DNA of 64,000 nt. It comes from an uncultured Bdellovibrionales bacterium. GTDB lineage: Bacteria > Bdellovibrionota_C > UBA2361 > CAYQVO01. The position numbers and the translations under genes were made by a program. The DNA lies in the NCBI GenBank assembly GCA_964421085.1, contig CAYQVO010000002.1, positions 91,134 through 155,133 on the forward strand. Reading direction: 5' to 3'. How positions within the stretch are numbered: the stretch's first letter is position 1; each line of letters begins with the position of its first letter. Shown here piece by piece: positions 17,786 through 38,390 of the stretch. The notes beneath the pieces are model-generated. The model searched no databases. It was given only the letters and a program-made list of their open reading frames with translations, and was not told the origin of the DNA.

Positions 17786-18769
17786 ATGTTAGATGCGCGT
17801 GTTCAAAAGCTGGATAAGAAAAACCTGTACCTCCTTTCTCTGCTCGATTCAAACTGCCGGATGCCCCTTTCGGAAATGGGCGCAAAGCTTCGCATGACCA
17901 AAGAAAGCATTCACTACCGCATAGGCGAACTGGAAAAGTCGGGGATCATCGATCGCTACTACGTCATCATCGACACCGCAAAACTGGGCTACTATTCGTT
18001 CAAACTCTACCTTCAGCTGCAGCGGGTCCGAGGACCGAGCATCGCATCATTTGCCGGGTTCCTGGCGGATGACCCAGCGGTGTACTGGCTTGCGCATACG
18101 ATAGGCAAATTTGACATTATCGTCGGACTTTGGGTGCAGAACCAGATGGAGTTCGACTCGTTTCTAGTGCGGTTGATGAAGAAGCACGGGGCGAAGATTG
18201 CTGCAAAGCAGTTTACGATCACAAAGTATGGGTTTCAAACGAGCAGAAAGTGGCTCTTCGACAATCAAAACCCGAGCCTGTCAATAATCGGAGGACCTGC
18301 CTTCCAGCATTCCATCGACGCCCTGGACTGGAAAATTCTTTCCCTGCTCTCGACGAACGGAAGGCTCTCCTATTCGAAAATTGCGCAGGAGTGCGGCTCG
18401 ACTGCCGCAACGGTAATTTCCCGGGTAAGGAAACTGGAGAAGTCAGGCGTCATCACGGCGCACCGCATTCACCTGAATCTGGAGAAGCTCGGCATGGAAT
18501 TCTACAAACTCTTCGTCGTGCTGTCCGACAAGACCGAGACTCTCGAAAAGAAAATGATCGAGTACTGCAGCAGGCACCGCAACGTGCTGAATGTTTTGAC
18601 GTGCGTGGGTCCCTGGGACATGGAAATCGAGATAGAGGCGAAGTCTCTCGCCGAACTGAACGAAGTCACACTCGAACTACGGGGTAAATGGCCGAAGAAC
18701 GTGCACTCGGTGGAGTTGGTGTCCATTGTGTCCGAGAAGACGCCGGTATTTTTGCCGAAGGCGAAATAG
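17786..18769 (+). CDS. Lrp/AsnC-family transcriptional regulator with two tandem HTH-RAM modules
   Basis: 327 aa. Two AsnC-type HTH segments (LDKKNLYLLSLLDSNCRMPLSEMGAKLRMTKESIHYRIGELEKSGII and LDWKILSLLSTNGRLSYSKIAQECGSTAATVISRVRKLEKSGVI), each followed by a RAM-like domain. Confidence 0.8.
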   Translation: MLDARVQKLDKKNLYLLSLLDSNCRMPLSEMGAKLRMTKESIHYRIGELEKSGIIDRYYVIIDTAKLGYYSFKLYLQLQRVRGPSIASFAGFLADDPAVYWLAHTIGKFDIIVGLWVQNQMEFDSFLVRLMKKHGAKIAAKQFTITKYGFQTSRKWLFDNQNPSLSIIGGPAFQHSIDALDWKILSLLSTNGRLSYSKIAQECGSTAATVISRVRKLEKSGVITAHRIHLNLEKLGMEFYKLFVVLSDKTETLEKKMIEYCSRHRNVLNVLTCVGPWDMEIEIEAKSLAELNEVTLELRGKWPKNVHSVELVSIVSEKTPVFLPKAK

Positions 18770-22172: not shown

Positions 22173-23018
22173 TTACGCCGCAAAGATCCCCAGTTGTTTC
22201 GGCCCGTGTCTTTCGAAAGCGGGAGGATCGAGTTTTTCCGGAGCAAGTTTCCGCACTGCCGAAATGAGATGGCGCGCAGAATCAGGTCGCAGCCAGTGGA
22301 ACCTGAACTGCCGCGCAAGCTGACGCGCGATATGAGACGCGCGCATTTTTTTCTCAACGGGTTCTGAACAGTCTGCAAGAGGCCTAATATAAATTCTGTC
22401 TGCGTTTTCCGCGAGCAGTTCAGCGAAAGAAGGCGCGTCCTGCACCCAGTCCCCGTACGGAAGGAGAGGGGCAGCCTGAAGAGTCACCGGAATCCCAAGT
22501 TTGCGGAGAGTCCGAACGGCTCTCAGCCGTTCTTCAATCCGCGGCAGACCTGGAGTGTATTTTGCGACACTCTCCTCGAGGGGAGTCTCGAGTCCTATTG
22601 TGACAGATGCATGAGAAGCGAGGCGTTTCAGAACCGGCACTGCAAGCACTATGAGGGGGCTTCTTGTCTGAACGACAAGCCTTGCGGGTGTGTAACGGGA
22701 AAAGAGATCGAGGAATCTCATGCTCGCGTCAAATCCTCCTTCAAATGGATGAAAAGGATCGCGTGTGACTCCGAAGTAAATGTATATCTCTCTGAGATTA
22801 CCCTGCCTCGAGAGGCGGAGCATATGGTTTTCGAGCTGTGTTAGGGGCGCCTTTCTGTTCAAAAGGTAGCGGCTTCTCAGCTGCGGAACGGCCCCCTCAT
22901 CGTTCAACCGCAGATGAAAGTGCTCTCTCGCGTCGGTTTCAGGAGCAAGTCGATGCGCGCCAACAGCCACTCCATCGGCAAATGAATCGACAGTGTAAAT
23001 GATGCGGGCCTCGTTCAT
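22173..23018 (-). CDS. Hypothetical protein
   Basis: 281 aa, soluble, with no motif I can name. Rich in Arg and Leu. No radical-SAM CxxxCxxC motif despite a faint resemblance to photolyase-like TIM barrels. Confidence 0.35.
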   Translation of the reverse strand: MNEARIIYTVDSFADGVAVGAHRLAPETDAREHFHLRLNDEGAVPQLRSRYLLNRKAPLTQLENHMLRLSRQGNLREIYIYFGVTRDPFHPFEGGFDASMRFLDLFSRYTPARLVVQTRSPLIVLAVPVLKRLASHASVTIGLETPLEESVAKYTPGLPRIEERLRAVRTLRKLGIPVTLQAAPLLPYGDWVQDAPSFAELLAENADRIYIRPLADCSEPVEKKMRASHIARQLARQFRFHWLRPDSARHLISAVRKLAPEKLDPPAFERHGPKQLGIFAA

Positions 23019-24297: not shown

Positions 24298-24567
24298 ATG
24301 TCGGGCAGGCGAAAGGGCGAAAGCGGTGCGAGTCTTATGGAATACGTTATTCTCCTCAGTTTTGTCGCCATGGCTGTTATTCCCGTAGTCAAGTATTTTG
24401 GTCTTCGTGGGGCGTGCAGAGAATGTGTGAACGCCTGCGCGATTTCGCCTCCGCCCGAAAACGTGGATACGTGGCTGAACCCGGCACACCGGCAGTCCGT
24501 CATAGATGGCTGCGCTTCCGGGTCCTACTCTGTTGAAGCCCTCTGCGGTTCGTGCAGCACCGGGTAA
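24298..24567 (+). CDS. Small Flp/Fap-pilin-like protein with a Cys-rich C-terminal extension
   Basis: 89 aa. The N-terminus, MSGRRKGESG|ASLMEYVILLSFVAMAVIPV, fits the Flp prepilin motif G/xxxxEY followed by a hydrophobic helix. The C-terminal 50 residues carry 7 Cys (GACRECVNACAISPP...DGCASGSYSVEALCGSCSTG). RBS AAGGAGG at about 24283. Confidence 0.45.
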   Translation: MSGRRKGESGASLMEYVILLSFVAMAVIPVVKYFGLRGACRECVNACAISPPPENVDTWLNPAHRQSVIDGCASGSYSVEALCGSCSTG

Positions 24568-24987
24568 CGGGGTGTCACATCGGGGTTGAAGCAGGCGTCA
24601 GACCTCTCAGAGTTTTCATTTCAAAATTTTCCGGCGGGCTGGAACCCCCTTTCCATTTTTCCACGAGAAAAAATAATCGCGGCATAAACGGCAACGAGAA
24701 AAATAGAGGCAAGGCCGTTGAGAAGCATAGAGAGGAGGCGGCCGTCCGCGGCAGCGGACGATACCGGCGCCGCTGTAAGTCGTGACAGTAAATCCATTAA
24801 AGGGCTCAATTAGTTCAGGGACAGGCGGCGAATGACGCCGATCCCCCGGAGGAAGCCGGAGGATTGGCCGGCAGGTTATTTTCGCGTTTTTTGGGGTGCT
24901 TATGACGGCAAAAGGGCATGGCAAGGGTGGGTGAACAGGCCGCCGTCATGCTCCGAATCGCCCCCGGATCATTTCCCATCATAAATA

Positions 24988-25758
24988 ATGCAGAGATCAA
25001 CTGCAGATGAAGTTGAAGTATTGAAAATGAGACAGCTTGTGGAGGATAGAGACATCACCATCGAGGCAGGCGCGTCTGTTCAGGAAGCGGATGCAGACCA
25101 TGTCGATATGCTGCTCCTTGGAGAGCTCAGCGGGAAGCTTTCTCCGGAACGCATCTATCCGTCGTCGATTGAAGGCAGGTGTGCGGATGAAAACGTCGAA
25201 CGTCACATTGCGCGTTACAGGTTCGCCGCGGAATTTATCGGCGAGGGTGATGTTGTGCTCGATGCGGGATGTGGAGCGGGGTATGGTTCCGCGATAATCG
25301 CAGCAAAGGCAGGATCAGTAATCGGTGTCGACATATCCGGCGAGGCTGTGGGTTTTGCCCTCGCGACATATCAGAGAAAGAACGTAACTTTTTTGTGCGA
25401 AGATCTGGCCAGGTTCACACGTAAAGACGGAGAGTTCGACGGTGTAGCATGCATCGAAACATTGGAACATCTCGCACCGGAATTGTGCAGGAGTTTCATG
25501 AGAGCAGTCCGGCGATTGCTCAAACCCGGGGGGGTTCTAATAGCGTCATCTCCCATGCTGCGTTACAAAAACGGAAAGCCTTTCATCACGAATCCTCACC
25601 ACATCAACGAAATGCCAAGAGATGCGCTCCTGAGATTTTTCGTCGAAACTCTCCCGGGTTTTGGGTTTCAGTTCTTTCACCAGAAACAGAACGTTTTCAC
25701 GCCTCTTCTCGATGAGAACACAGGGTTTTGTGTCGTCGTGGCGCGGAAGGAAGGATGA
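24988..25758 (+). CDS. Class I SAM-dependent methyltransferase
   Basis: SAM-binding motif VVLDAGCGAGYGSAIIA, then motif II/III (DGVACIETLEHL, LKPGGVLIASSP). 256 aa. Confidence 0.8.
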   Translation: MQRSTADEVEVLKMRQLVEDRDITIEAGASVQEADADHVDMLLLGELSGKLSPERIYPSSIEGRCADENVERHIARYRFAAEFIGEGDVVLDAGCGAGYGSAIIAAKAGSVIGVDISGEAVGFALATYQRKNVTFLCEDLARFTRKDGEFDGVACIETLEHLAPELCRSFMRAVRRLLKPGGVLIASSPMLRYKNGKPFITNPHHINEMPRDALLRFFVETLPGFGFQFFHQKQNVFTPLLDENTGFCVVVARKEG

Positions 25759-26648
25759 TGCCGCCCGATCCCGGTAAAACAATCGCGGATAATCTGCAAC
25801 GGGTAGATGAACTAGTGGAAGGCAGCCTCCGGATTCTCGACGGTTATCCGCTCTTCAGCTGGCTGGAGATCACAGCGACGGATTCGTGCAATCGACGGTG
25901 CGTATTCTGTCCGCATCCGGCAGCTCAGTCAAAGGCCGGCCACTTCATGGCAAAAGCATTGTATGAAAAAATAGCGGTTGAGCTCGAGGCGGTGGGATAC
26001 TGTGGAACTGTGATGCTGGCAGGATACGGAGAACCCCTTCTTTCACGGAATATAGTGGACATGACACGTGTCTTTGCCGGAATCTGCAACACTGAAATCA
26101 CAACCAACGGCGATCCCCTGACACCGCGGTTGATCACGGAACTGATGAACGCCGGAGCTTCGAGGCTCATCGTCAGCCTTTACGACGGCCCCCATCAAAT
26201 CGAGAAATTCTCCTCTATGTTCGCGGAGGCAGGGGCCCCGTCCGTGTTCTACGTTCTGAGAGACCGATGGTATCCGGCGGAAAAAGATTTCGGTCTCAAA
26301 CTGACCAACCGCGCAGGGACCGTTTCTGCCGGGAATCAACCCCCTGTCGATGAGAGCCGGGCATGCTTTTACCCGCACTATATGATGATGGTAAACTGGG
26401 AGGGCAGTGTGTACCTGTGCACTCAGGACTGGAACCGGAAGCAAGCCTGCGGAAACCTCACGACAAGCTCGCTTCTGGAGGTATGGACGTCTCCGCCTTT
26501 CAGGAAATACCGGACGCTTCTTGCAGATGGGCGGCGCGCAATCGAGCCTTGTTCAGAGTGCAACGCTGATGGAATGATGCACGGGAGGAATCATGCGCGC
26601 GGATGGGGGATTTTTTACGGGAAAATGCCGGCGAATGAACCACGATAA
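25728..26648 (+). CDS. Radical SAM enzyme with C-terminal SPASM/twitch domain
   Basis: CxxxCxxC cluster motif (TDSCNRRCVFCPHP), GGEP-like motif (GYGEPLL), and a C-terminal auxiliary-cluster cysteine pattern (CFYP...YLCTQDW...ACGNL...EPCSECN). Overlaps the upstream methyltransferase and the downstream aminotransferase, so they are translationally coupled. Confidence 0.8.
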   Translation: MCRRGAEGRMMPPDPGKTIADNLQRVDELVEGSLRILDGYPLFSWLEITATDSCNRRCVFCPHPAAQSKAGHFMAKALYEKIAVELEAVGYCGTVMLAGYGEPLLSRNIVDMTRVFAGICNTEITTNGDPLTPRLITELMNAGASRLIVSLYDGPHQIEKFSSMFAEAGAPSVFYVLRDRWYPAEKDFGLKLTNRAGTVSAGNQPPVDESRACFYPHYMMMVNWEGSVYLCTQDWNRKQACGNLTTSSLLEVWTSPPFRKYRTLLADGRRAIEPCSECNADGMMHGRNHARGWGIFYGKMPANEPR

Positions 26649-27984
26649 ATTGAAAGATCCATCTCCTCCTGCCTCACTCACGCGGGATCTGATGGAATCC
26701 ATGCCCGATAGAATCCTGAATGAGAGCTACGGGAAGGCGCCCGGTTCCCTCTATATCCGCAGCGCATCCGGATGTTTTATCGAAGATATCGACGGCAGGC
26801 AGTACATCGACATGGCGCTTGGAGGTGGTACCGCGATTCTTGGACATGCCGGTGCCTGTGTCACGGATCGTATCATTTCCCGGATTAAGTCCGGCGCCAT
26901 TTACGCAGTCCCAAATCCCATCGCGCATCAGTATGGCGAAGTTCTGCATGAAGCGATGCCCTGGTTCTCGCATTTCGCTTTCTGCAGCACCGGGTCGGAG
27001 GCGACGATGCGGGCTGTCCGCATTGCAAGGGCCTTTAACGGCAGGCGGAAGATTGGACTGTTCAGCGGCGGCTGGCATGGTTCGCACGATATGGTTCTTG
27101 TGGAGGAGGATTATTCGGGGCCGGAAGCAGAGCCGCGGATGGTTCTGAAATCAGCAGGCACGCCGGAGGAGATCAAAGATCTCATCGTCTTCCTTCCTTA
27201 CAACCATCCTGACGCGTTCGAGCTGATTCGAAAAAATCGATCCGAACTCGCAATGATCATGATTGAGCCGTCCCAGGGATCCAACCCACGGGATGACGTC
27301 GTTCAGTTTCTTCGCGATCTGAGGAAGGTGACGGAGGAAACTGACATACTGCTCTGCTTCGATGAGATCATAACGGGCGGGAGGCTCGCCCTGGGCGGAG
27401 CTCAGGAACTGTACGGGATTCATGCGGATCTCGCGACTTACGGAAAGGTGCTTGGGGGAGGTCTTCCAATAGGAATCGTCGGTGGAAGAGAGGAGGTAAT
27501 GCGTGTCATTCGACCCTCCGCCGCGGAGAATCGCACTCCTGTGTTTCTTGGAGGGACTTTTTCCGCAAATCCGCTCTCTGTTGCGGCAGGGATGGAGGTG
27601 ATGAGGTATCTCCGGGAAAATGAAGCGGTCATCTATCCGTGTTTGAATGAGAACGGAGCTTTGTTGAAGAACGGTGTGAACGAATTCTGCGAAGCACGAA
27701 ATATTCCCGCATATATGACCGGAGCCGGATCGATGCTTCGGCTCGTTTTCAGCAGCCGCTCCGTCAGGTCCCGCCGTGAACGGGATTTTGCCGAAGTAAA
27801 TCCGGAGGTGCAGAAAGAATTTTATGCATCGCTTCTCGCATCGGGCGTGCATGTGGGAACGAACCGGCTTAATTTTCTCTCGATTTGTCATGATCAGACG
27901 ATTATACGGAAGGTGCTGGACTCGTATACGGAAAGCCTCGATAAATTCACCGTGGCGGGGAGATTCCGGAGATCTGCGGAATGA
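26635..27984 (+). CDS. Class-III (PLP, fold type I) aminotransferase, glutamate-1-semialdehyde aminomutase-like
   Basis: Motifs GSEATMRAVRIARAFNGRRKI and DEIITGGRLALGGAQELYGIHADLATYGKVLGGGLPIGIVGGREEVM (PLP lysine region). The start is uncertain (26593, 26635 or 26695). Confidence 0.8.
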   Translation: MNHDKLKDPSPPASLTRDLMESMPDRILNESYGKAPGSLYIRSASGCFIEDIDGRQYIDMALGGGTAILGHAGACVTDRIISRIKSGAIYAVPNPIAHQYGEVLHEAMPWFSHFAFCSTGSEATMRAVRIARAFNGRRKIGLFSGGWHGSHDMVLVEEDYSGPEAEPRMVLKSAGTPEEIKDLIVFLPYNHPDAFELIRKNRSELAMIMIEPSQGSNPRDDVVQFLRDLRKVTEETDILLCFDEIITGGRLALGGAQELYGIHADLATYGKVLGGGLPIGIVGGREEVMRVIRPSAAENRTPVFLGGTFSANPLSVAAGMEVMRYLRENEAVIYPCLNENGALLKNGVNEFCEARNIPAYMTGAGSMLRLVFSSRSVRSRRERDFAEVNPEVQKEFYASLLASGVHVGTNRLNFLSICHDQTIIRKVLDSYTESLDKFTVAGRFRRSAE

Positions 27985-28349
27985 TGAGCAGGTCGGAAAC
28001 AACAGCGCGTGAATGGCTCGAAAAAGGGCGGGAGTATTCCCGGCGGAACGATCCTGGAGAGTCTCTCGCATGCTTTCTCCGGGCTGTGGATCTCGACCCC
28101 TGGTGCCTCGATGCGTATCTTGGCATTGGAGATGTATTCATGGCGAGTGGTCAGTTCCTTGAAGTATTATCCGCTGTCAATAAGGCTGAGGAACGTTTCG
28201 GAGATCATCCCTGGCTGCTTGCGACCCGTGGACATGCCCTTGTCCGCCTCGGGCTGCGCCGAAGAGCGCTCGCTACGTACGAGAAGGGCTGCCGGCTGTT
28301 TCCGGAAGTATACGAAAATGAACTTTTTGCGCAGCGACTGCGTAAATAA
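27981..28349 (+). CDS. TPR-repeat protein
   Basis: 122 aa with three helical hairpins showing the TPR signature (W-LG-Y-A-F-A-P). The stop overlaps the aminotransferase stop/start (ATGA). Confidence 0.55.
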   Translation: MMSRSETTAREWLEKGREYSRRNDPGESLACFLRAVDLDPWCLDAYLGIGDVFMASGQFLEVLSAVNKAEERFGDHPWLLATRGHALVRLGLRRRALATYEKGCRLFPEVYENELFAQRLRK

Positions 28350-28366: not shown

Positions 28367-29749
28367 TTATTTTCTGAGGGCGAGCCTCTGATAAACAAAA
28401 TCCGGCGCTTTGCGGGCTGTGGCTTCTTCATAATGCGCCTTTGCCGTCACGGCATCCGAAGGATCCTGAGAGGAGACAAGTTCCTCCGCGACGATCCGGA
28501 GGATTTCGTGGATTCCTTCACCGCTTTTGACACCTTTCATCCAAAGCTCCTTTATCCGGCCAGTGTGCAGGGAGAGGTCCGGCGAATCTGCTGACAACTC
28601 CTCCGCATCGAACATCGGAAATTCTATCGGAGAGGCTCTGTTTCCAGGTTTGATTGTAATTCTCGGCATGTATGCTTCGGGAAGATTCACACTGTGAAGA
28701 AATTCAGCGATTTCATTCTCGCTCTCTTTCTTCAGCTGGAACCGCGTGTCGTCCAGACATATTCCGAAGGAATCTCCGCACTTTTTCAACCGGGACACGG
28801 TGTTCATGAACTTCTCATACCCAGGAGAGGGGATAAGGCCGCCTCCCGCAATTTTCGAGATATGAGAGTCATTAAGCCCTGGTCCAATGCACCGGTCATC
28901 GGAGTATTCAAGAGGTTTATTTCGAGCATTTTGCCCCGCGAACAGCTCGTCAAAACGGATTTCGAAATCGCTCTCGATACTCCGGTAAGGTATCATCGAG
29001 AACTGCGAGTGGAGCGCGGCAAAGTACACAGCGAACACCTCATTCAGGAATTCCGGCATCACGAAATCCCTTCCGGACATCCTGGCAGCCGTTATCAACG
29101 CTTTCGAAAGGAGATACAGGTCGAAATCCCGGAAAAGAACCAGCAGTTCCCTGAAGTAGAGGAGGAAGGGGACTGTGTATGTGGTTGCTTCACCCCCGAA
29201 GAGGGCACTGCGGCAGAGTGACTGGAGCTTGACATTGAAATGCGTGAGAGCTTCGAGATCGCGCCTTTGAGCGTAAATGACATTATCGTGCATCAAAAAA
29301 GGCATGCTCAGCCATGCCGGAAAGACGTGAACTTTTCCCTGAAATATCTGCGGGAAGGAACCAAAGGGGGTGATTTGCGGCACTTCCCGCCTGTTCAGCG
29401 CGGGGAACAGCTGCTTCATGGAAGGGGAATCTCTGTCGGCTCTGATACGGAAAATGAGGCTGTCATCGGGACACAGCGACAGCCCATTAAACAGGGTCGC
29501 ATGCTGCTGCATGAAATATGCATGCATCGGGAGAAGGTCTACTGGCTCTGAAGAAACAGTCGTGATGCCGTATTTTCGCAGCTCGGACTGCAGGTGCGGT
29601 CTTCCGACAAGCTCCTCTTTCCATGTCGAGAAGATAATTTCATCGACAAGACCGTCAGATCGCCACTGGAGCAGCCGCGTGATGGTTACCATGAACTCGA
29701 GTGAGTCACGTATCTGACCAGTCACAATGGCATAGATCCGTTTTCTCAC
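28367..29749 (-). CDS. Hypothetical protein, paralog A of a divergent pair (unknown family)
   Basis: 460 aa. The N-terminal roughly 250 aa align with the protein at 29859 (YAIVTGQIRDSLEFMVTITRLLQWRSDGLVDEIIFSTWKEEL vs WAIICGLVRDRRAFEEKINSLVQWRSEGILEETVVSTWLGEL; LCPDDSLIFRIRADRD vs SCPDDAHVLKLRADLF; FPQIFQGKVHVF...DNVIYAQRRDLEALTHFNV vs WPQIFNERVVVG...GDVYFYGLRDDLKKLVTFTV). I do not recognise the family. Confidence 0.5.
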   Translation of the reverse strand: MRKRIYAIVTGQIRDSLEFMVTITRLLQWRSDGLVDEIIFSTWKEELVGRPHLQSELRKYGITTVSSEPVDLLPMHAYFMQQHATLFNGLSLCPDDSLIFRIRADRDSPSMKQLFPALNRREVPQITPFGSFPQIFQGKVHVFPAWLSMPFLMHDNVIYAQRRDLEALTHFNVKLQSLCRSALFGGEATTYTVPFLLYFRELLVLFRDFDLYLLSKALITAARMSGRDFVMPEFLNEVFAVYFAALHSQFSMIPYRSIESDFEIRFDELFAGQNARNKPLEYSDDRCIGPGLNDSHISKIAGGGLIPSPGYEKFMNTVSRLKKCGDSFGICLDDTRFQLKKESENEIAEFLHSVNLPEAYMPRITIKPGNRASPIEFPMFDAEELSADSPDLSLHTGRIKELWMKGVKSGEGIHEILRIVAEELVSSQDPSDAVTAKAHYEEATARKAPDFVYQRLALRK

Positions 29750-29858: not shown

Positions 29859-31019
29859 ATGAGAAACTGGGCGATAATCTGCGGATTGGTGAGAGACAGG
29901 AGGGCTTTCGAGGAGAAGATCAATTCTCTCGTACAGTGGAGGTCGGAGGGGATTCTCGAAGAGACAGTTGTTTCCACCTGGCTCGGAGAACTCAATGCTT
30001 ATGAAGGCCTTTCGAAGAGCCTGGCCGACAAAGGTGTCATTGTTCTGGAGAGCCTCGAGCCGGAGCTGATCCTTTCGGGTCACAGGATCCATCAGATGAA
30101 GACGCTCGCATACGGGTTGGAATCGTGCCCGGATGACGCTCATGTACTGAAGCTCAGGGCTGATCTCTTCTCTTTTTTCCCCGGTATAAAGCAGGTGCTG
30201 GAAGGGCGGGTGGATACGGCCATTGCGCCGGATCCCGGATGGCCGCAGATCTTCAATGAGCGAGTTGTTGTGGGCACCTTCCTGCCCATTCAGCCATTTT
30301 TCATCGGGGACGTTTACTTCTATGGATTGAGAGACGATCTTAAAAAGCTTGTTACATTCACAGTGGAGCCGGAACTATGCTCTCTGCTGATGAATCCCGA
30401 ACAGGTTTTTCATTTTGCACCCTTCCGGAACCATTTTCAGTTCTTCTTCCAGTATTTCCGGATCAATCCGGGCCTTGTACATCACAGCGTTCAGATGGCG
30501 AGCGATCTCGTGAGGTTCCTGCTCGACGAACCATTTTTCCTGAAAACACTCGCGTCCTGGTTGATGCTTCTCCGGAGGTATTACAGGGTCGGATTCTTCG
30601 AGCGAAGCGAAGGACATTCGCTGCAGGCAGCGGAAGAATTCGCAGGAGTCTCGCTGCCGGAATTCCTTGACCCGATGCTGGAATGTGGGCCTTCATTCCG
30701 CTATGTGGTAAGGCCTGCCAACGCCGTGGGTGGGTCTGATGACGCATGGGTTGCCCCCTGCCTCAACGGAGATTTTCAGCATGATGTGTTCCGCGACCGT
30801 TTCATGGAAGCAGTGGACAGCTTTCCGGATTTTGAATCCTTCCAGAGATTCGGCCAGTCCCCGCTCTACCTTTCAAGTGATGCGATAGAGTTCGCCCGCA
30901 GGCTCAAAAAGAGATTTCCGGATGCGCCCTTTGTCCTGGAAGATCTCCCCGAATCGAGGGGGAGGAGTGTAAGGATCCAGGGGAAACCTTTCGACGGAAT
31001 GGTCAGAGCGGGCCGCTGA
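29859..31019 (+). CDS. Hypothetical protein, paralog B of a divergent pair (unknown family)
   Basis: 386 aa, homologous to 28367..29749 (see there). Divergently transcribed from a shared 109-bp intergenic region. Confidence 0.5.
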   Translation: MRNWAIICGLVRDRRAFEEKINSLVQWRSEGILEETVVSTWLGELNAYEGLSKSLADKGVIVLESLEPELILSGHRIHQMKTLAYGLESCPDDAHVLKLRADLFSFFPGIKQVLEGRVDTAIAPDPGWPQIFNERVVVGTFLPIQPFFIGDVYFYGLRDDLKKLVTFTVEPELCSLLMNPEQVFHFAPFRNHFQFFFQYFRINPGLVHHSVQMASDLVRFLLDEPFFLKTLASWLMLLRRYYRVGFFERSEGHSLQAAEEFAGVSLPEFLDPMLECGPSFRYVVRPANAVGGSDDAWVAPCLNGDFQHDVFRDRFMEAVDSFPDFESFQRFGQSPLYLSSDAIEFARRLKKRFPDAPFVLEDLPESRGRSVRIQGKPFDGMVRAGR

Positions 31020-31027
31020 GCTTGAGA

Positions 31028-31909
31028 TCACCGTATCAGCTTACTGTACATTTCAGGATAATCCGTGCAGATCGCGTCCGCGCCTGTTGATACAAGATCC
31101 TTTGCCCGCGATAACACACGTTCGATTGATCCTCCATCCTCGTGCGCCTCTCCACCGGCAAGGGCAGGGGATGATGAATGAAGTTCCGGGCTGACGAGGG
31201 CCACGGAAAACCCTTCGCTCCGGGCCGACTCGATGATGTCCCGGGTGTAAAACGCCTTCTTCCGCCCGTTGACATCGGCTCGATCCCACTCATCCAGCCA
31301 TATCCAGTCAAAGACATGTCTGTATGGGAGGACAGCATCGAGGCTGTAGAGCGTGTCTGAAACACACTTGCTGTATCTCTCGATATCGAACGGGTGCGCA
31401 ACCGAAGGTGCAAGGTGAATATCCCGAAGTTTTTTTCTCAGACATGACGCGGCGTCAATGGTGAGATCGAAAACAAGCATGTTCTTGTGCAGTTCTTCGA
31501 ACCCCCCAAGAATGTCTGCGAGAACCTCAAGGTTTTTTTCTGACTGATGATGTCCTTTGAGGTGGAGTGCCTTGAGCGCCGATGATGAAACGGTCCGTAT
31601 CAGAGCGAGGATGTCCTGTAATGTCATTAAATCCGGCGCGGCGTCCCGCACTTCGTCCGCCATAAGGTCGTCAAATCTCCTTCGGTCCTTCTCAGCCGAT
31701 ATTCTCGCTATGTCGCAGTCATGCCAGATGAACGGCTGAAGGTCGCGGCTGAATACGACATCGAATTCGATTCCAAACCCCCGCGTCAGATGGCTCCTGA
31801 AAGCTTCGGGGGACGACTCTCGGTGCAGGAACGCCGCATTGTCCGGCTCGAGCCCCCGGTGAGTCACTATGAAGGGTGGAGAGATACGATCAATGACAGG
31901 TGACGTCAT
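31028..31909 (-). CDS. Glycerophosphodiester phosphodiesterase (GDPD) family protein
   Basis: N-terminal GDPD catalytic signature IVTHRGLEP...ESSPEAFRSHLTRGFGIEFDVVFSRDLQPFIWHD (the HR..E..DV..HD motif). C-terminal ADAICTDYP. Confidence 0.7.
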   Translation of the reverse strand: MTSPVIDRISPPFIVTHRGLEPDNAAFLHRESSPEAFRSHLTRGFGIEFDVVFSRDLQPFIWHDCDIARISAEKDRRRFDDLMADEVRDAAPDLMTLQDILALIRTVSSSALKALHLKGHHQSEKNLEVLADILGGFEELHKNMLVFDLTIDAASCLRKKLRDIHLAPSVAHPFDIERYSKCVSDTLYSLDAVLPYRHVFDWIWLDEWDRADVNGRKKAFYTRDIIESARSEGFSVALVSPELHSSSPALAGGEAHEDGGSIERVLSRAKDLVSTGADAICTDYPEMYSKLIR

Positions 31910-32630
31910 TTGCGGCCTCGTAAGCCTGCAGGTCTTCCGGAGTTCCGAGACCGTGCATGGCCCATGGTGCGATTTCGAAAATTCCCACCTTCTTCCGCGC
32001 CAGCAGTATCTCGTTATAGACGGGACAGACGTAAAACTCGCCGTTTACTCTGATGTTTTTCTCTATCATCGATACCGCACCCTCGAAGAAGAGGGAACCT
32101 TGCTCGAAATAGTAAATGCCGACAGTCGCATGAGAGCTTATCGGTTCCTTTTCCGCGACGCATTCCACCAGCCCCTCCGGCGATAACTTTGCATAAGACC
32201 ATTTTGGATGGGCTGACTGGAATGTGAGAATGTCTCCGTCCAGTCCGCGTTCCTGTGCATCCGATATGAGGGAGTCAATGTCGAGATCTATCAGCTGGTC
32301 GCTGTTTGCAAGGACCAGAGGGGAATCATTATTGAAAAAGTCGGCGGCAAGCAAAACCGTACACGCTGCGCCTTCCGTGACTTTTTCCACAGTGACGATG
32401 TTGCATCCGGGGGCCAGCGCGTCAAGAAGTTCTTCAAGATTGAACTGCTGACAATGCTCGCGCCGGCATATAAAGGTGAACTTATGATCGATGTCAGGCC
32501 GCACGTTATCGATGACATGGGAAATCATCGGCCTGCCTTTTACGTCTATAAGAGGTTTGGGCAGGGAGTACCCCGCCTCCGCGAAACGTTTCCCGTTGCC
32601 TGCCATTGGAATTACAATGTTGATCGGCAT
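31890..32630 (-). CDS. Sugar/alcohol-phosphate nucleotidyltransferase (LicC/IspD/MobA-like NTP-transferase fold)
   Basis: N-terminal motif IVIPMAGNGKRFAEAGYSLPKPLIDVKGRPMISHVIDNV is the typical glycine-rich nucleotide-binding loop. 246 aa. Overlaps the GDPD and HAD genes, forming an operon. Confidence 0.7.
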   Translation of the reverse strand: MPINIVIPMAGNGKRFAEAGYSLPKPLIDVKGRPMISHVIDNVRPDIDHKFTFICRREHCQQFNLEELLDALAPGCNIVTVEKVTEGAACTVLLAADFFNNDSPLVLANSDQLIDLDIDSLISDAQERGLDGDILTFQSAHPKWSYAKLSPEGLVECVAEKEPISSHATVGIYYFEQGSLFFEGAVSMIEKNIRVNGEFYVCPVYNEILLARKKVGIFEIAPWAMHGLGTPEDLQAYEAANDVTCH

Positions 32631-33262
32631 TCTTCCATTCCCTCCATGAGCTCTCCGGACAAAAATTCAGTAAAGAGAGACTTGTTCACTTCATTGTACG
32701 AATCGACTCCAATAAGGAACCCCCCGCTCGCACGGGCTGCGGCTTTCCCGTGGTCGGAATCTTCCACGATCGCGCACTGTTCAGGAGAAAGTTTCAACAG
32801 CTGAAATGCGCGAAAATAGATCTCCGGATCGGGCTTCGGCAGTCTCACGTCTTCGTTCCCAAGCACTAGAGAGAAGCAGTCGAAGATGCCGCTTTTCTTC
32901 AGCATCAACTCGACACTTCTGTTGACAGCGTTTGAACACACGGCGAGTGTAAATCCCGACTTCCGCAGCAGTTCGAGCATTTCGATTTTTGCGGGATCAG
33001 GACGACAGCGCGCACAGATTGTTTCATAAGTGTATCGCTGCTTGAGGGAAATAACCGGCTTATGAAGCGCCGAAGGGAAGCCTTTGTGAGCAGACAGCGC
33101 TTCGAGCTTCTTCCGGGTAGGAAGACCGTTATAGAATGAAAGATGTTCTTTGCGGGAAATGGTAAATCCAAACGTCCCCAGCGCTTTGTTCAGCGCTTCG
33201 TAGTGCCACTCAGCGGCGTCGACAAGAACTCCGTCGAGATCGAATATTACAGCTTCAATCAT
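32612..33262 (-). CDS. HAD-superfamily hydrolase (subfamily IA, beta-phosphoglucomutase/phosphatase-like)
   Basis: Motif I MIEAVIFDLDGVLVD at the proposed start (ATG 33262, preceded by AGGGA). Motifs II/III (LAVCSNA, GNEDV...KPDPEIYF, VEDSDHG). The ORF track extends the frame to 33355. Confidence 0.8.
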   Translation of the reverse strand: MIEAVIFDLDGVLVDAAEWHYEALNKALGTFGFTISRKEHLSFYNGLPTRKKLEALSAHKGFPSALHKPVISLKQRYTYETICARCRPDPAKIEMLELLRKSGFTLAVCSNAVNRSVELMLKKSGIFDCFSLVLGNEDVRLPKPDPEIYFRAFQLLKLSPEQCAIVEDSDHGKAAARASGGFLIGVDSYNEVNKSLFTEFLSGELMEGMEECRSTL

Positions 33263-33433
33263 TCCGCATCCCTGCTCAAAAGATCCATGGGCAACTTCAC
33301 AACGCGCAGGCGCTGAAGTTCCCTCAGTAGAATACTCGGCTGAAAAGATCCGCATCTTTAAAAGTTTCTTGTCAGAAAGGACCAGGAATTTTTCCTATGA
33401 AAGGACCATGGAACATTGTAAAGTTCCGGGAGA

Positions 33434-34081: not shown

Positions 34082-35239
34082 TTGAACAGCGTGGAATTCA
34101 GGGCGGAGGATTCGTTTTTGACGCTCGAACGCGTTTCGTCGATGAGTGATGAGCCCGAAAGAGAAAGCCTTGTCCTTTTGCGGGAAGCAACACAGTATCC
34201 CAATGCAGAACCGCTCTTTGTGTATGCAGATGAGGCCATACCTGAAGTGTCGCGCAGCCTCCTGTACCGCCAGGCATGGAGCATCGATCCGTCGTACTGT
34301 GTCAAACTTCCCGGCGGCTCGGTATACGGGGAGTGCGGGATAGTGACGGGAGGAGGGGTTTTTCTGCATGATCTCTCGACGCTTGCCGGACGGCATCGCA
34401 AGCCGGCAGAAGTAACCCGGCAGGAAGACGGGAGTGAAATCGCAGGATTCAAAACTGTGAAGCCGGAATACCGCGACTGCTCCGCGGCAATCCTGTCTCC
34501 CCTTATCGCGTGCGGCAAAAATCATTCTCACTGGCTTTTTCATGCGCTGCCTAAAGTGCAGATTTTCAGGGATGCGTCGGTTGCCCCCGACTTTTTCCTT
34601 GTTCTCCCGGCAGTTGCCGGATATCAGCGGGACACCCTGAAAGCACTCGGAATAGGCGATGATCGGATACTTGTGCGCGATCCGGCGCAACCGATGAAGT
34701 TCCGTGAACTCTATGCGTCGTACACGCAGAGCGACGTTTCACCGGACATGACGATCTATGATGAAATCATATCTAAAGTGGATCGGGGAGAGGAAGGACC
34801 TGAAAGAATCTATGTATCCAGAATGGATGCCAGGGGTATGCGGCGTTTCATCAACGAGGAGCAGGTCATTGATGTTGCCCGGAACAACGGATTCCATATA
34901 GTCACCCCCTCCGAGCTTTCGTTTGAAGACGAAGTAAGAATTTTCCGGAATGCCCGCATTATTGCCGGTCCCGTCGGTGCGGGTCTTTACAATGCCGTCT
35001 TCACCCGGCCGGGCTGCGTCATTGTAGCCATGAGCGAACCAGCTTATGTAATGGACTGGCCGCTGCAGCTCGCGTCGCTTCGAAAACATTCCATAGGCTA
35101 TCTTCTCGGGAACAGTTTTCTCTCGATGGAACCGGTACACCGGGGGTGTCACAACAGCTGGGTTCTCAATCCGGCTCTCTTCGATCTGGCGCTTAACAAC
35201 CTTCTTTCCGGCAAAGACGCGGCCAGGGCGGGCAGGTGA
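34082..35239 (+). CDS. Glycosyltransferase family 61 / DUF563 protein
   Basis: HWLFHALPKVQIF motif, and a C-terminal block RRFINEEQVIDVARNNGFHIVTPSELSFEDEVRIFRNARIIAGPVGAGLYNAVFTRPGCVIV that is characteristic of DUF563/GT61 (EOGT-like) transferases. Confidence 0.65.
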   Translation: MNSVEFRAEDSFLTLERVSSMSDEPERESLVLLREATQYPNAEPLFVYADEAIPEVSRSLLYRQAWSIDPSYCVKLPGGSVYGECGIVTGGGVFLHDLSTLAGRHRKPAEVTRQEDGSEIAGFKTVKPEYRDCSAAILSPLIACGKNHSHWLFHALPKVQIFRDASVAPDFFLVLPAVAGYQRDTLKALGIGDDRILVRDPAQPMKFRELYASYTQSDVSPDMTIYDEIISKVDRGEEGPERIYVSRMDARGMRRFINEEQVIDVARNNGFHIVTPSELSFEDEVRIFRNARIIAGPVGAGLYNAVFTRPGCVIVAMSEPAYVMDWPLQLASLRKHSIGYLLGNSFLSMEPVHRGCHNSWVLNPALFDLALNNLLSGKDAARAGR

Positions 35240-35300: not shown

Positions 35301-38300
35301 ATGGATCCGAACAGGCTGATAATCGACTTTAAAAAGCAACTTGGTAACAGAAACACCTCCGCTGTTCATGCTCTCGATATCTTCCGTGATTTGAGAGACG
35401 TTCTGGAGCAGGAAACAAAATCCGATCCTCTCCTTGCCGCAATAAGGGAAAATATACTGCGGCTTTTCATGCAGAGATCCTGTCTGCTTCCCGACCTGGA
35501 ACGTGAGGCGGCTGTTTTGAACCTGATTCTTCAGGATTCCCGTTCCAATACTGCTGAAATATCCTCCGGGCTGGAAGAATGGGGGCGCTCAGTCGCGGAA
35601 CTTTCTGAAATCCTGCGTGGAATCAAAACCCATGTGACACAGATGGCGACGCGACACCGTATGACGGAGCAGAAACCTTCCGTGGTCCGGATTGAAAACA
35701 GTAATTTCAGCGAGGCTCGTGAACTCAATATAAAGATCCTCGCCTGCGAGATGCTGCTTGGCAGCACCGATCCGGCTCCCTTTCCTCCGAACATGCAGGT
35801 GGAATCAACCAGCAGGTGCAATGCGCGGTGCAGAATATGCGGGCACTTCTTCCATCCCGCCAGGGCATACAGAGATCTCGATTTTCAGGTGTTTCTCAAA
35901 TTGTCGCCCGTTCTTCCGTATGTCCAGTGCCTTGAACTGCACACTTATGGAGAAGCCTCTCTCGCGCCGCATTTCACCGCCATGTGCGAAGTCTGCAGGA
36001 GCTTCGGCTGCAGAACGCATGTGCTTACAAACGGCTCGACTCTTGGGGTGGATAGTCCCCTGGCAGACGTAGACCAGATTGGAATCAGCGTTGATTCAGA
36101 CAACGAACGCACCTTTGACGCCGTCCGCAAAGGGCTGCGGTTCAAAACAGTGATCGAAAACATCAAAGCGTTTCGCCGGCGGAATCCGGACAATTTCATG
36201 TACTTTCTGGTGACGATACACCGGGCGAATGTAGATGAAATATCCGGCATAGCCGGACTAGCCTGCGATCTGGGCCTTCAGGCCGTCTGCCTCAGTCTCA
36301 TGTCGGCCATTCATCCGTCACTGCGGCCGGTCACTTTAACGGCCCAGGACGTTCCTCTTTACCGGGAGGAAGTGGAGAAAGCAGAAAGAATCTGCTCGAA
36401 GCGCGGCGTAGATGTGTATGATTACGCTTTTCTGGACGGTCTCCCCGATCAGACGGAACCTCTGAACAAGGAGGCATGTTTAAGGGTGTTCGAGTCGCTT
36501 ATCCCTCCATCTGCCGGCGCGCCGCCCGATATTGAAGAGTTGACAACGAGGCTCGCAAAGATTGAGTGCGGCGCATATCCTGCGTCCCTGCACCGGTTTT
36601 TCACACTGGAAGCCGCGTCTTTCGAATCCACTCGAAAAGCGGAGATCGAAAGAGTCCATGAAGACACTTCTATGGAACCTGTCACGGTCGATACCGGCAG
36701 GCTGAAGGAACGGCTGCATGAACTCCGGAGTGAAATAGAAAGGCGGGGCAGGGATGCGCTCGTAATTCCGTACTGTACCGCCCCCTGGTTCAGGCTTGAA
36801 GTGAAGGCGGACGGAGGGATCTTCCCCTGCTGCAGCTGGAAAGGACCACCGTTTGCCGATCTTGCAGTTCAGTCTGTCGCGGAGATATGGCACGGGCCGT
36901 TCATGACGGCGCTCAGGCAGGGATGTTACGGCGAAGGAGAACTCCCTCCTTTCTGCCTGAACTGCAGGAGCATAGACCGTTATCAGGGCCTGACTGAAAC
37001 GATCAGCACGATGAACGAATTCGGCCTGGACTATAACACAATCCGGAAGATTCCCGGGTTTTCTCCTCCGCCCGGGAAACTCCAGCTTATACGCGCGGGC
37101 GCGCCGGAGATTGAATACGTTCCCATTGATAAATCGTATCCGGGAGGATTTTACGAACTCCGGGGGGATGCAGAAGGGCGGGGGAACAGGAGCAGTGGTT
37201 ACGACTTTGTCATCTCGCCCGGCCCCAGGCTCTTCTGCGAAAGACCTTCGAGCATGCGAAGCAGAAAGATTTCCTGTGGAGTTCTCGGCGGCGCTTCCCT
37301 TCCTTTGAAGGACATCCTGAAGCTCGAAGGACGCCCGCGTGTATCGATAACAGAAACCGCTCATGAATTATTCCCCTCCGGTCTTTTGTTTGTGTCTGTC
37401 CGTTTCCGTAATGAAGGTGAAGTGCCGCTCTTCGGCAGGGATTCGCATCCCGATTGCGTGGACAGAGCGGGACTGCGCGTGCTTAAGCAGGAAGCCGGAG
37501 TCACATCGGCAGCGCGTGAAGAAAGAATGGATATGCCGTTTGAGTGGATACTCCCCGGATCGGAGTACCATATCTCGGGACTCTTTGACTTCTCGGGCCT
37601 TGAACCCGGGACATACACGGTGGAGACAGGAATTGTCCGGGAAGGAGAATTCTGGATTTCGGAGGAATCTGAACGGCGAAGCTTTGAAATAACCACGGCA
37701 GAAGCCTCAACCATGACTCCTGTCGAAGTGTCGAGAGTTCCGGGATCGAAAGGGATTGCGCTTACATTCGACGCGGGAGCGTCAATACCGCCTTCGGACG
37801 CCCTTCTCGATTTTCTGCAGAAGAGGCGGATGCAATGCACAGTTTTTCTGACCGGGAGGTCGATAGCCTCTTTTCCTGAACATGCGCGTCGCATCGCGAA
37901 TGAGGGGCATGAAGCGGCAAACCACACATACAATCATCCATGGCTGTCCTTTCTGCACGATCCCCATCCGGCGCAGGGAGTGGACAAAGACTTTCTCATG
38001 AAAGAGCTTTATTCCACCGAAGAGGCCTTCTTCAAAACGACAGGGCGCACGATGTCGAGACTCTGGCGGGCTCCCTACGGAGCAAGAAACGCGGAGATTC
38101 TCAAATGGGCGATGGAAGAAGGATTTACTCACGTTTTCTGGTCGCACGATTCAAACGACTGGAGGATAGGCTCTTCCCTTAATTCCATGAAGTGTACCCC
38201 GCAGAGCGTCTTTGAGACGCTTAAGAACAAACTTCGCCAGTTTGATGATGCCGATGGCGCTGTAGTTCTATTTCACCTCTCGACCTACAATCAACCGGAC

Positions 38301-38390
38301 ATGCTTTCAGAGATGTCGAAATTCATCGACTGGATTGCCGGCCGGGGTCTTGCCTTTCGGACGGCAGGCTCTCTTCTCACGATGATCTGA
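35301..38390 (+). CDS. 1029-aa fusion protein: N-terminal helical domain, radical-SAM core, SPASM domain, beta-rich linker, and C-terminal NodB-type polysaccharide deacetylase domain
   Basis: Radical-SAM cluster motif ESTSRCNARCRICGHFF at residues about 166-180. SPASM cysteines IPYCTAPWF...GGIFPCCSWKG...GCYGEGELPPFCLNCRS at about 490-560. NodB motifs IALTFDAGAS...CTVFLTGRSI...GHEAANHTYNHPWL at about 820-910, with conserved Asp, His and His positions present. Confidence 0.8.
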   Translation: MDPNRLIIDFKKQLGNRNTSAVHALDIFRDLRDVLEQETKSDPLLAAIRENILRLFMQRSCLLPDLEREAAVLNLILQDSRSNTAEISSGLEEWGRSVAELSEILRGIKTHVTQMATRHRMTEQKPSVVRIENSNFSEARELNIKILACEMLLGSTDPAPFPPNMQVESTSRCNARCRICGHFFHPARAYRDLDFQVFLKLSPVLPYVQCLELHTYGEASLAPHFTAMCEVCRSFGCRTHVLTNGSTLGVDSPLADVDQIGISVDSDNERTFDAVRKGLRFKTVIENIKAFRRRNPDNFMYFLVTIHRANVDEISGIAGLACDLGLQAVCLSLMSAIHPSLRPVTLTAQDVPLYREEVEKAERICSKRGVDVYDYAFLDGLPDQTEPLNKEACLRVFESLIPPSAGAPPDIEELTTRLAKIECGAYPASLHRFFTLEAASFESTRKAEIERVHEDTSMEPVTVDTGRLKERLHELRSEIERRGRDALVIPYCTAPWFRLEVKADGGIFPCCSWKGPPFADLAVQSVAEIWHGPFMTALRQGCYGEGELPPFCLNCRSIDRYQGLTETISTMNEFGLDYNTIRKIPGFSPPPGKLQLIRAGAPEIEYVPIDKSYPGGFYELRGDAEGRGNRSSGYDFVISPGPRLFCERPSSMRSRKISCGVLGGASLPLKDILKLEGRPRVSITETAHELFPSGLLFVSVRFRNEGEVPLFGRDSHPDCVDRAGLRVLKQEAGVTSAAREERMDMPFEWILPGSEYHISGLFDFSGLEPGTYTVETGIVREGEFWISEESERRSFEITTAEASTMTPVEVSRVPGSKGIALTFDAGASIPPSDALLDFLQKRRMQCTVFLTGRSIASFPEHARRIANEGHEAANHTYNHPWLSFLHDPHPAQGVDKDFLMKELYSTEEAFFKTTGRTMSRLWRAPYGARNAEILKWAMEEGFTHVFWSHDSNDWRIGSSLNSMKCTPQSVFETLKNKLRQFDDADGAVVLFHLSTYNQPDMLSEMSKFIDWIAGRGLAFRTAGSLLTMI

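Follow-up and report, generated by a model that had tools for sequence, protein, structure and literature searches.

The 64,000-nucleotide stretch analysed here (the window) comes from an uncultured Bdellovibrionales bacterium (contig CAYQVO010000002.1) and contains, at positions 24988-28349, a group of four genes centred on a radical S-adenosylmethionine (SAM) enzyme and a class-III aminotransferase. A first reading of this DNA, made from the sequence alone, had described four overlapping plus-strand genes here, and we found the open reading frames (ORFs) and their domains where that reading had placed them. Besides the radical SAM enzyme and the aminotransferase, they encode a methyltransferase and a small TPR protein:

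24988..25758, plus strand: class I SAM methyltransferase (Pfam Methyltransf_25, 72 bits; also Methyltransf_11, Methyltransf_31 and Methyltransf_23)
25755..26648 (ORF from 25728), plus strand: BtrN-like twitch radical SAM enzyme of 297 amino acids (aa), predicted alcohol dehydrogenase (Pfam Radical_SAM, 42 bits, and SPASM, 54 bits)
26593..27984, plus strand: class-III, glutamate-1-semialdehyde (GSA)-aminomutase-like pyridoxal 5'-phosphate (PLP) aminotransferase, 463 aa (Pfam Aminotran_3, 151 bits)
27981..28349, plus strand: small TPR protein, 122 aa (Pfam TPR_14, TPR_2 and TPR_1)

In operon order, the genes overlap by 4, 56 and 4 nt. The first junction is an ATGA, in which the TGA stop of the methyltransferase gene (25756-58) overlaps an ATG at 25755. 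This ATG is most likely the start of the radical SAM gene, since the database protein P0001 begins there, a GGAAGGAAGG ribosome-binding site lies upstream, and the codon shares the ATGA with the methyltransferase stop. At the second junction, the radical SAM stop (26646-48) follows the aminotransferase ATG (26593, with ribosome-binding site GGGAGGA) to give the 56-nt overlap; another possible aminotransferase start, ATG 26635, would shorten it to 14 nt. At the third, the TPR start codon (ATG 27981) and the stop of the aminotransferase gene again share a 4-nt ATGA. The overlaps of 4-30 nt given previously thus hold for the two ATGA junctions, but not for that between the radical SAM and aminotransferase genes. 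In the nearest relative, locus L082, whose radical SAM enzyme is 78% identical, the corresponding junctions measure 4, 53 and 4 nt. Ratios of nonsynonymous to synonymous substitution (dN/dS) against L082 were 0.09 for the methyltransferase, 0.09 for the radical SAM enzyme, 0.13 for the aminotransferase and 0.29 for the TPR protein. Judged from these sequences, all four are real coding genes under purifying selection, the TPR gene being the least constrained. An Rfam scan of the window returned no riboswitch or RNA.

BtrN carries a single auxiliary [4Fe-4S] cluster, held by four cysteine ligands in a twitch domain (PMC10337720, PMC9012708), and the radical SAM enzyme of the window resembles it. 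In an alignment of 27 family members only seven cysteines are invariant: a CX3CX2C motif (C45, C49, C52), which lines up with C16, C20 and C23 of BtrN, and C204, C222, C266 and C269, each of which lines up with a BtrN cysteine. Searched against the PDB, a profile built from this alignment matched BtrN (4M7T) over its full length (residues 31-273) with E=3e-39, and the next structures had E-values above 1e-7 and matched in the N-terminal core only. The window sequence by itself also found BtrN (E=2e-27), with all seven cluster cysteines aligned. We then compared an AlphaFold (AF2) model of the enzyme (predicted local distance difference test score, pLDDT, 85) with known folds using Foldseek. 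The top PDB match was again BtrN (E=1.9e-18, TM 0.77 normalised to BtrN), followed ten orders of magnitude behind by SpeY (PDB 7WZX, E=7.8e-9) and then by BlsE, anSME and DesII.

The enzyme had initially been called a radical SAM/SPASM protein, a name that Pfam also gives. Because only four C-terminal cysteines are conserved, the "SPASM" domain is better described as a single-cluster twitch domain; the set of seven to eight cysteines that serves two auxiliary clusters in SPASM enzymes is not present. Profile evidence for a well-characterised cofactor-maturation family, which had been named in advance as telling against the first reading, did not appear: the best NCBIfam match, to the tungsten cofactor oxidoreductase radical SAM maturase, reaches 69 bits against a cut-off of 380. 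The NCBIfam radical SAM matches span the N-terminal core only, with AhbC at 37 bits (cut-off 650) and the peptide-maturase models at 17-25 bits (cut-offs 375-650). Sequence and model together place the enzyme in the BtrN-like twitch type, as neither a cofactor nor a peptide maturase. Its likely reaction, predicted from the homology and from the conserved aminotransferase partner, is a two-electron oxidation of a secondary alcohol to a ketone.

The aminotransferase matches Aminotran_3 (PF00202) at 151.4 bits, against a gathering threshold of 30.5, over profile positions 11-400 of 403, and its N-terminus aligns with that of its L082 counterpart from residue 1. HemL is the best NCBIfam name, as anticipated by its earlier description as GSA-aminomutase-like, although both HemL models fall short of their cut-offs (TIGR00713, 297.7 versus 527.3 bits; NF000818, 298.5 versus 398). 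In the PDB it is nearest to HemL and the mycosubtilin aminotransferase domain (~217-219 bits), with ForI and D-phenylglycine aminotransferase as further neighbours. More distant homologues, at ~70 bits and E ~1e-19, include the aminoglycoside aminotransferases 7LM0 and 9AU3, which act in C-6' transamination (PMC7941887). Because these C-6' enzymes share the class-III fold and are detectable as homologues, sugar amination by class-III enzymes has precedent, and the view that such an enzyme would be unusual in this role was overstated.

The methyltransferase belongs to an orthologue group, here called CBS-MT, whose members score ~200 bits. Except for one 181-aa ORF they are ~310-340 aa long, and annotated members carry an N-terminal pair of CBS domains, confirmed by Pfam in L001, L002, L082, L083, L086 and L088. 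The window protein lacks this pair, and in comparisons with three of the orthologues its alignment sets in only near residues 105-122 of the latter. Against L082 it is 76% identical from residue 122 of the L082 protein, with homology starting at 25117; the first 43 codons (24988-25116) have no homologue, and the true start may lie later than 24988, for example at ATG 25108. The 420-nt gap ahead of the gene (24568-24987) holds no recognisable remnant, and a search upstream for traces of a CBS domain or of a B12-binding radical SAM gene gave chance-level matches only (best E=0.18). The latter gene stands between the methyltransferase and BtrN-like genes of L082 and is missing from the window. 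With the CBS pair and the B12 radical SAM gene absent, and the TPR protein ~90 codons shorter, deletions in the window lineage are suggested, and the operon looks like a reduced form. The best PDB match of the methyltransferase is phosphoethanolamine N-methyltransferase, at only 58 bits.

To gauge how far the linkage of these genes extends, we drew on a scan of one genome per species, in which 285 stretches encode relatives of the radical SAM enzyme; a profile search puts the BtrN-like family at 377 clusters (50% identity) at E<=1e-30. We retrieved 79 loci and scored 76, comprising retrieved loci and those from exact look-ups with duplicates removed; genes in fetched loci were simple ORF calls, and a few loci were dropped from the counts. 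A class-III aminotransferase is directly adjacent to the radical SAM gene in 28/76 loci and within three genes of it in 48/76. Within the same distance, an aminotransferase of any class occurs in 53 of the 76, a methyltransferase in 33 and both in 27. Three layouts recur. In Psychromonas, Sulfurimonas and others, the order is CBS-MT, radical SAM enzyme, aminotransferase and a second methyltransferase. Paraglaciecola, Aliiglaciecola, Pseudoalteromonas and Rheinheimera have methyltransferase, radical SAM enzyme, methyltransferase and aminotransferase. Several alphaproteobacterial and Verrucomicrobiota metagenome-assembled genomes have the radical SAM gene followed by one for an aminotransferase-containing protein of 720-890 aa.

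Some of these long proteins (~780 aa) are methyltransferase-aminotransferase fusions, with both domains confirmed in L022 and L038. Similarly long forms occur in L021, L032 and L061, and a fusion is apparent in at least five loci overall. Such a fusion is strong evidence that methylation and transamination share a substrate. The distance matrices of the radical SAM enzyme and aminotransferase correlate across loci (r=0.67, permutation p=0.001), a correlation to which shared species phylogeny contributes. In a collection of 5.8 billion proteins, the best homologues of the two enzymes sit on equal-sized contigs; all carry generic names only, the JGI label of the aminotransferase homologues being glutamate-1-semialdehyde aminomutase. 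The proposal of a single operon serving a shared pathway fits the overlaps kept in L082, the cross-phylum neighbourhood and the fusions. The expected co-occurrence of all four genes was found in part: the radical SAM, aminotransferase and methyltransferase genes recur together across phyla, but the TPR gene has an orthologue only in L082 among the loci compared.

The window TPR protein matches a 211-aa L082 protein over the first 120 residues of the latter (57% identity), and shares only generic TPR similarity with the larger TPR proteins linked to the cassette elsewhere. At least eight loci have the cassette flanked by other TPR proteins (450-520 aa) or by TPR-GT41 proteins. The window gene is translationally coupled to that of the aminotransferase, and its product is probably an adaptor or a remnant.

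Two further arrangements of the BtrN-like gene were seen among the relatives. In Pelagibacteraceae (SAR11 loci L015, L016, L020, L024, L028, L031, L046 and others), it is typically flanked by genes for an Old Yellow Enzyme-type flavin oxidoreductase, a ~160-aa uncharacterised protein and a small winged-helix regulator, and some of the BtrN-like proteins there are extended to ~430 aa. This arrangement looks like a distinct sub-cassette. In Planctomycetota and deltaproteobacterial loci (L003/L083, L014, L018, L023 and L087), the radical SAM-aminotransferase pair has beside it genes for another BtrN-like paralogue, for a GFO_IDH_MocA oxidoreductase and for a sugar-phosphate isomerase of the SIS-CBS type. 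This combination hints at two successive oxidations or aminations.

The genes around the cassette in relatives are largely those of glycan synthesis. Counted by locus, they include epimerase/dehydratase (29), SDR (18), nucleotidyltransferase (14), GT2 (14) and DegT (11) genes, with rarer SIS-CBS (9), B12 radical SAM (8), carbamoyltransferase (7) and UDP-GlcNAc 2-epimerase (7) genes. NeuB is encoded within 10 kb in 19 loci, Maf in L002, L051 and L057, and flagellin in four loci. In Sulfurimonas marisnigri, fliD/fliS stand on one side of the cassette and two Maf genes on the other, with four flagellin genes after these. The cassette of Paraglaciecola mesophila and Aliiglaciecola comes after genes for a Maf protein of 1155 aa and for a sulfotransferase, and flagellin is encoded nearby. 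In the metagenomic loci L087 and L088, TPR-GT41 proteins flank the cassette, and FliK is also found in one of them.

In the window, the operon is followed by further genes of a glycan island:

28367..29749, minus strand: uncharacterised protein, possibly a GT-A-like transferase; 76% identical to the syntenic L082 protein U444, with homology starting at 29692
29859..31019, plus strand: uncharacterised 386-aa protein of a very rare family; N-terminal domain weakly like GT-A/nucleotidyltransferase folds
31028..31909, minus strand: GDPD-family phosphodiesterase-like protein (Pfam GDPD, 41 bits); 76% identical to the syntenic L082 protein
31890..32630, minus strand: sugar-phosphate nucleotidyltransferase, 246 aa (Pfam NTP_transferase); 87% identical to its L082 counterpart
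32612..33355, minus strand: HAD hydrolase, beta-phosphoglucomutase-like, phosphatase or mutase (Pfam HAD_2, 109 bits)
34082..35239, plus strand: GT61-family glycosyltransferase (Pfam Glyco_transf_61, 79 bits)

Nine genes of the island are syntenic with L082, at 57-88% aa identity, with eight at 75-88% and the TPR gene at 57%. The first two genes listed are divergently transcribed paralogues whose products are 24% identical. The protein at 28367-29749 has no Pfam or NCBIfam match. The 386-aa protein has only three homologues among 5.8 billion proteins; its AF2 model is poor overall (pLDDT 50), with an N-terminal 110 residues that fold confidently, and Foldseek found no match at E<=0.001, the best (E=0.011, with this pLDDT-50 model) being to GT-A/nucleotidyltransferase folds. 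In both L082 and L089, its gene is conserved together with those for the HAD protein and the NTP-transferase. The HAD protein is 88% identical to its L082 counterpart (alignment from 33262) and 47% identical to the HAD protein of L089, and scores 110 bits with the NCBIfam model PGMB-YQAB, under the cut-off of 153. The nucleotidyltransferase is 49% identical to a double NTP-transferase of L089, and members of its cluster are encoded close to the radical SAM gene in 14 loci, counting the window. Because L089 has this trio of HAD, nucleotidyltransferase and uncharacterised-protein genes without the radical SAM cassette, the trio looks like a separate activation-and-transfer module. A GT61 gene flanks the cassette in L082 too; at 24% identity it is a family-level counterpart, not an orthologue, and the window GT61 gene is probably part of the same island. 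The remaining window is ordinary chromosome, with mreBC, PBP2, rodA, IMPDH, RNase HII, galU and heptose genes.

We consider it reasonably probable that the methyltransferase, radical SAM enzyme and aminotransferase form a glycan-tailoring cassette that converts a hydroxyl into a carbonyl, then an amine and then a methylated amine on a sugar-type precursor. The 5'-deoxyadenosyl radical of the BtrN-like enzyme would take a hydrogen from a carbinol carbon of this precursor. Judging by the neighbouring HAD and nucleotidyltransferase genes and by the CBS domains, the precursor is probably activated by a phosphate or nucleotide group. The second electron would pass to the single Cys4 auxiliary cluster, leaving a ketone or aldehyde without the use of nicotinamide adenine dinucleotide (NAD+) or O2. 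The class-III PLP aminotransferase could then turn the carbonyl into an amine, and the SAM methyltransferase would methylate the product, most simply on the new nitrogen rather than on an oxygen, as the methyltransferase-aminotransferase fusions suggest. The HAD, nucleotidyltransferase, GDPD-like, GT61 and two uncharacterised, possibly GT-A-like proteins would activate the unit and transfer it to a surface glycoconjugate; in flagellated relatives, where the cassette lies in flagellin glycosylation islands, the target may be flagellin. The sequence-only reading had proposed an aminated and methylated product, which the conserved linkage and the fusions make the best reading. A BtrN-like oxidation adds the step that was missing from its logic, namely a supply of carbonyl for the aminotransferase.

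Several points weigh against this proposal. Identity to BtrN is ~27%, and the fold relatives include BlsE (decarboxylation) and DesII (deamination/dehydrogenation), so that dehydrogenation is likely, not certain. The cassette is so far known from its genes. The window copy looks reduced, lacking both the CBS domain and the B12 radical SAM gene and having a short TPR protein, and its methyltransferase differs in type from that fused to the aminotransferase. No NeuB, Maf, TPR-GT, flagellin or flagellar gene was found in the 64-kb window by tblastn and Pfam. Finally, the isolated Psychromonas cassette has no sugar genes within 10 kb and would therefore also fit a common metabolite or macromolecule as substrate.

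The same glycan pathway might instead use the radical SAM enzyme for epimerisation, dehydration, deamination or decarboxylation, with the aminotransferase receiving its carbonyl from another enzyme. Such chemistries are found close by, in the fold neighbours BlsE, a decarboxylase, and DesII, and reportedly in NeoN, a radical SAM epimerase from the same aminoglycoside setting; several loci also carry GFO_IDH_MocA, SDR or epimerase/dehydratase genes as possible sources of a keto group. We nevertheless regard this alternative, the strongest of those considered, as unlikely. The two closest structures, BtrN and SpeY, are both alcohol dehydrogenases, with BtrN ahead by ten orders of magnitude, and the four-cysteine site that holds the auxiliary cluster in the oxidative enzymes is conserved. 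Moreover, the minimal cassettes of Psychromonas and Sulfurimonas contain no other oxidoreductase, which would leave the aminotransferase there without a carbonyl source.

It is quite improbable, in our judgement, that the cassette supplies not a surface-glycan building block but a diffusible small molecule, such as an aminocyclitol/aminoglycoside-like compound or a methylated amino-polyol headgroup. BtrN and SpeY both come from aminocyclitol antibiotic pathways, the top PDB match of the methyltransferase is a phosphoethanolamine N-methyltransferase, the GDPD, HAD and nucleotidyltransferase neighbours could process phospho-alcohol headgroups, and the Psychromonas cassette is self-contained. However, the annotated neighbourhoods contain no 2-deoxy-scyllo-inosose synthase and no antibiotic-type resistance or export gene, and the neighbours are overwhelmingly genes for glycosyltransferases, nonulosonic-acid synthesis and flagellin glycosylation.

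Upstream of the operon, an 89-aa ORF lies at 24298-24567 on the plus strand, 420 nt before the methyltransferase ORF; its ribosome-binding site is AAGGAGG, and it has a -10 element resembling TATAAT. The product has a hydrophobic N-terminus (GASLMEYVILLSFVAMAV), reminiscent of Flp-type prepilins, and a Cys-rich C-terminus. It has no Pfam or NCBIfam match and no homologue in 81 loci (L001-L081), and L082 has different genes at that position.

The sequence-only reading had also entertained peptide or small-protein modification. On that account, the enzymes would act on the Cys-rich 89-aa protein or another protein, as in the synthesis of ribosomally synthesised and post-translationally modified peptides, perhaps assisted by the TPR protein; an anSME-like conversion of Ser/Cys to formylglycine followed by transamination would be one example. 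The Pfam name SPASM for the C-terminal domain, the strong ribosome-binding site of a Cys-rich small ORF 420 nt upstream, the recurrence of TPR proteins near the cassette and the detection of anSME as a fold neighbour all lend this some appeal. We hold it very improbable: the four conserved C-terminal cysteines would make one auxiliary cluster where SPASM maturases have two, the NCBIfam peptide-maturase models score 17-25 bits against 375-650, the small ORF is without a homologue in the 81 loci and is absent from L082, and the fold E-value of anSME is eleven orders of magnitude weaker than that of BtrN.

A role in tetrapyrrole or cofactor metabolism, with the aminotransferase as HemL and the radical SAM enzyme as AhbC/AhbD/NirJ or a tungsten-cofactor type maturase, draws on the top NCBIfam names (HemL, 298 bits; tungsten cofactor oxidoreductase radical SAM maturase, 69 bits), the JGI label of the homologues as glutamate-1-semialdehyde aminomutase and a tandem AsnC-type protein with weak AhbA/B similarity encoded 6 kb upstream, but it is hardly credible, as all scores lie far under their cut-offs (HemL, 298 versus 398/527; tungsten, 69 versus 380; AhbC, 37 versus 650; AhbA/B, 35 versus 125-140), the radical SAM matches are confined to the N-terminal core, and glycan genes, with no tetrapyrrole genes, occupy the neighbourhoods.

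Among known systems, our proposed oxidation-amination-methylation cassette most resembles the BtrN/BtrS pair of butirosin biosynthesis in Bacillus circulans. BtrN is likewise a twitch radical SAM enzyme with a CX3CX2C motif and a single Cys4 auxiliary cluster, homologous over the full length. BtrS reportedly transaminates after the BtrN step, so that the order of radical SAM alcohol oxidation and transamination would be the same. BtrN itself is a dehydrogenase that converts an aminocyclitol alcohol to a ketone (PMC9012708). The differences are an identity of ~27%, a partner that is here a class-III aminotransferase (class I/II or DegT in some loci), the added methyltransferases, and a location in Gram-negative surface-glycan or flagellin-glycosylation loci rather than an aminoglycoside cluster. 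No 2-deoxystreptamine or aminoglycoside-type genes occur in the window or in annotated relatives; in context and substrate features the cassette does not correspond to the butirosin pathway, and we do not count it as a member. SpeY (7WZX), the second-best structural match, belongs to the same enzyme class to judge from its PDB title, "twitch radical SAM dehydrogenase", but it is much farther away than BtrN (TM 0.48, 21% identity). GenB1/GenB2 and KanB (7LM0, 9AU3) are class-III-fold PLP enzymes that, like the aminotransferase proposed here, aminate a sugar carbonyl; the window enzyme is much closer to HemL and the mycosubtilin domain, and is not their orthologue.

NAD-dependent routes to amino sugars that oxidise and then transaminate include NtdC/NtdA/NtdB for kanosamine, in which NtdB is a HAD phosphatase, RifL/RifK and WbpB/WbpE. 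They share the hydroxyl-to-keto-to-amine logic, and some cassette loci carry GFO_IDH_MocA oxidoreductases. In the cassette, however, the oxidation would depend on a radical SAM enzyme, the aminotransferase is of class III rather than DegT, and methyltransferases are integral. Flagellin islands of the Maf or FlmG/TPR-GT kind (Campylobacter, Shewanella, Caulobacter) provide a further likeness, as the cassette stands beside Maf/flagellin genes in Sulfurimonas, Paraglaciecola and Aliiglaciecola. Such islands are represented by L002, L051 and L057 (Maf and flagellin) and by L087 and L088 (TPR-GT41, FliK), and the window is not one of them. The Shewanella sfmABCDE operon encodes NeuB, a thiamine pyrophosphate enzyme, an SDR, a methyltransferase and an ATP-grasp protein (PMC3765264). 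We considered it as a possible known equivalent and rejected it, as it has no radical SAM or class-III aminotransferase gene.

We found no description of the cassette in the full-text literature searched, a negative that is limited to that library. The cassette is widespread and apparently uncharacterised: the enzyme families are known and the chemistry has precedent, and it is the setting that appears to be new. BtrN has so far been regarded as an almost singular case, a radical SAM enzyme that dehydrogenates the alcohol of a small molecule in an antibiotic pathway; most of its relatives (377 clusters, 285 stretches) are in surface-glycan loci beside an aminotransferase.

More tentatively, and with the balance of our own judgement tilting against it, BtrN-like enzymes with an aminotransferase and methyltransferases might constitute a previously unrecognised NAD- and O2-independent amino-sugar route, spread across phyla, that accounts for N-methylamino decorations on surface glycans and flagellin. 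Its users could include SAR11 glycan islands, flagellin glycosylation islands of Campylobacterota and Alteromonadales, Planctomycetota and Leptospira, and its products might include aminated nonulosonic acids, for example of the 8-amino type. If the cassette does act as we propose, bacteria would possess an anaerobic-style route for placing amino and N-methylamino groups on their glycans, among them flagellin glycans in marine and epsilon-proteobacterial lineages and those of the hypervariable glycan islands in SAR11. Glycobiologists would gain a genetic marker with which to predict such decorations, and enzymologists a test set in the natural methyltransferase-aminotransferase fusions. For the window alone, the gain is more modest: an operon that had no annotation, lying in a glycan island, acquires a functional hypothesis that is well supported.

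Three other genes in the window attracted our attention. Upstream of the cassette by 6 kb, a 327-aa protein of tandem AsnC/Lrp type is encoded at 17786-18769 on the plus strand, between two periplasmic binding-protein genes; it scores 35 bits against the siroheme decarboxylase subunits AhbA/B, for which the cut-offs are 125-140. A 281-aa ORF at 22173-23018 on the minus strand, 2 kb upstream, has a partial radical SAM match (PA0069/Rv2578c-like, 41 bits versus a cut-off of 360). At the edge of the island, the plus-strand gene at 35301-38390 encodes a 1029-aa protein of unusual architecture, in which a radical SAM core (residues 168-318) is joined to a twitch/SPASM domain (492-555) and, at the C-terminus, to a polysaccharide deacetylase domain (814-943).

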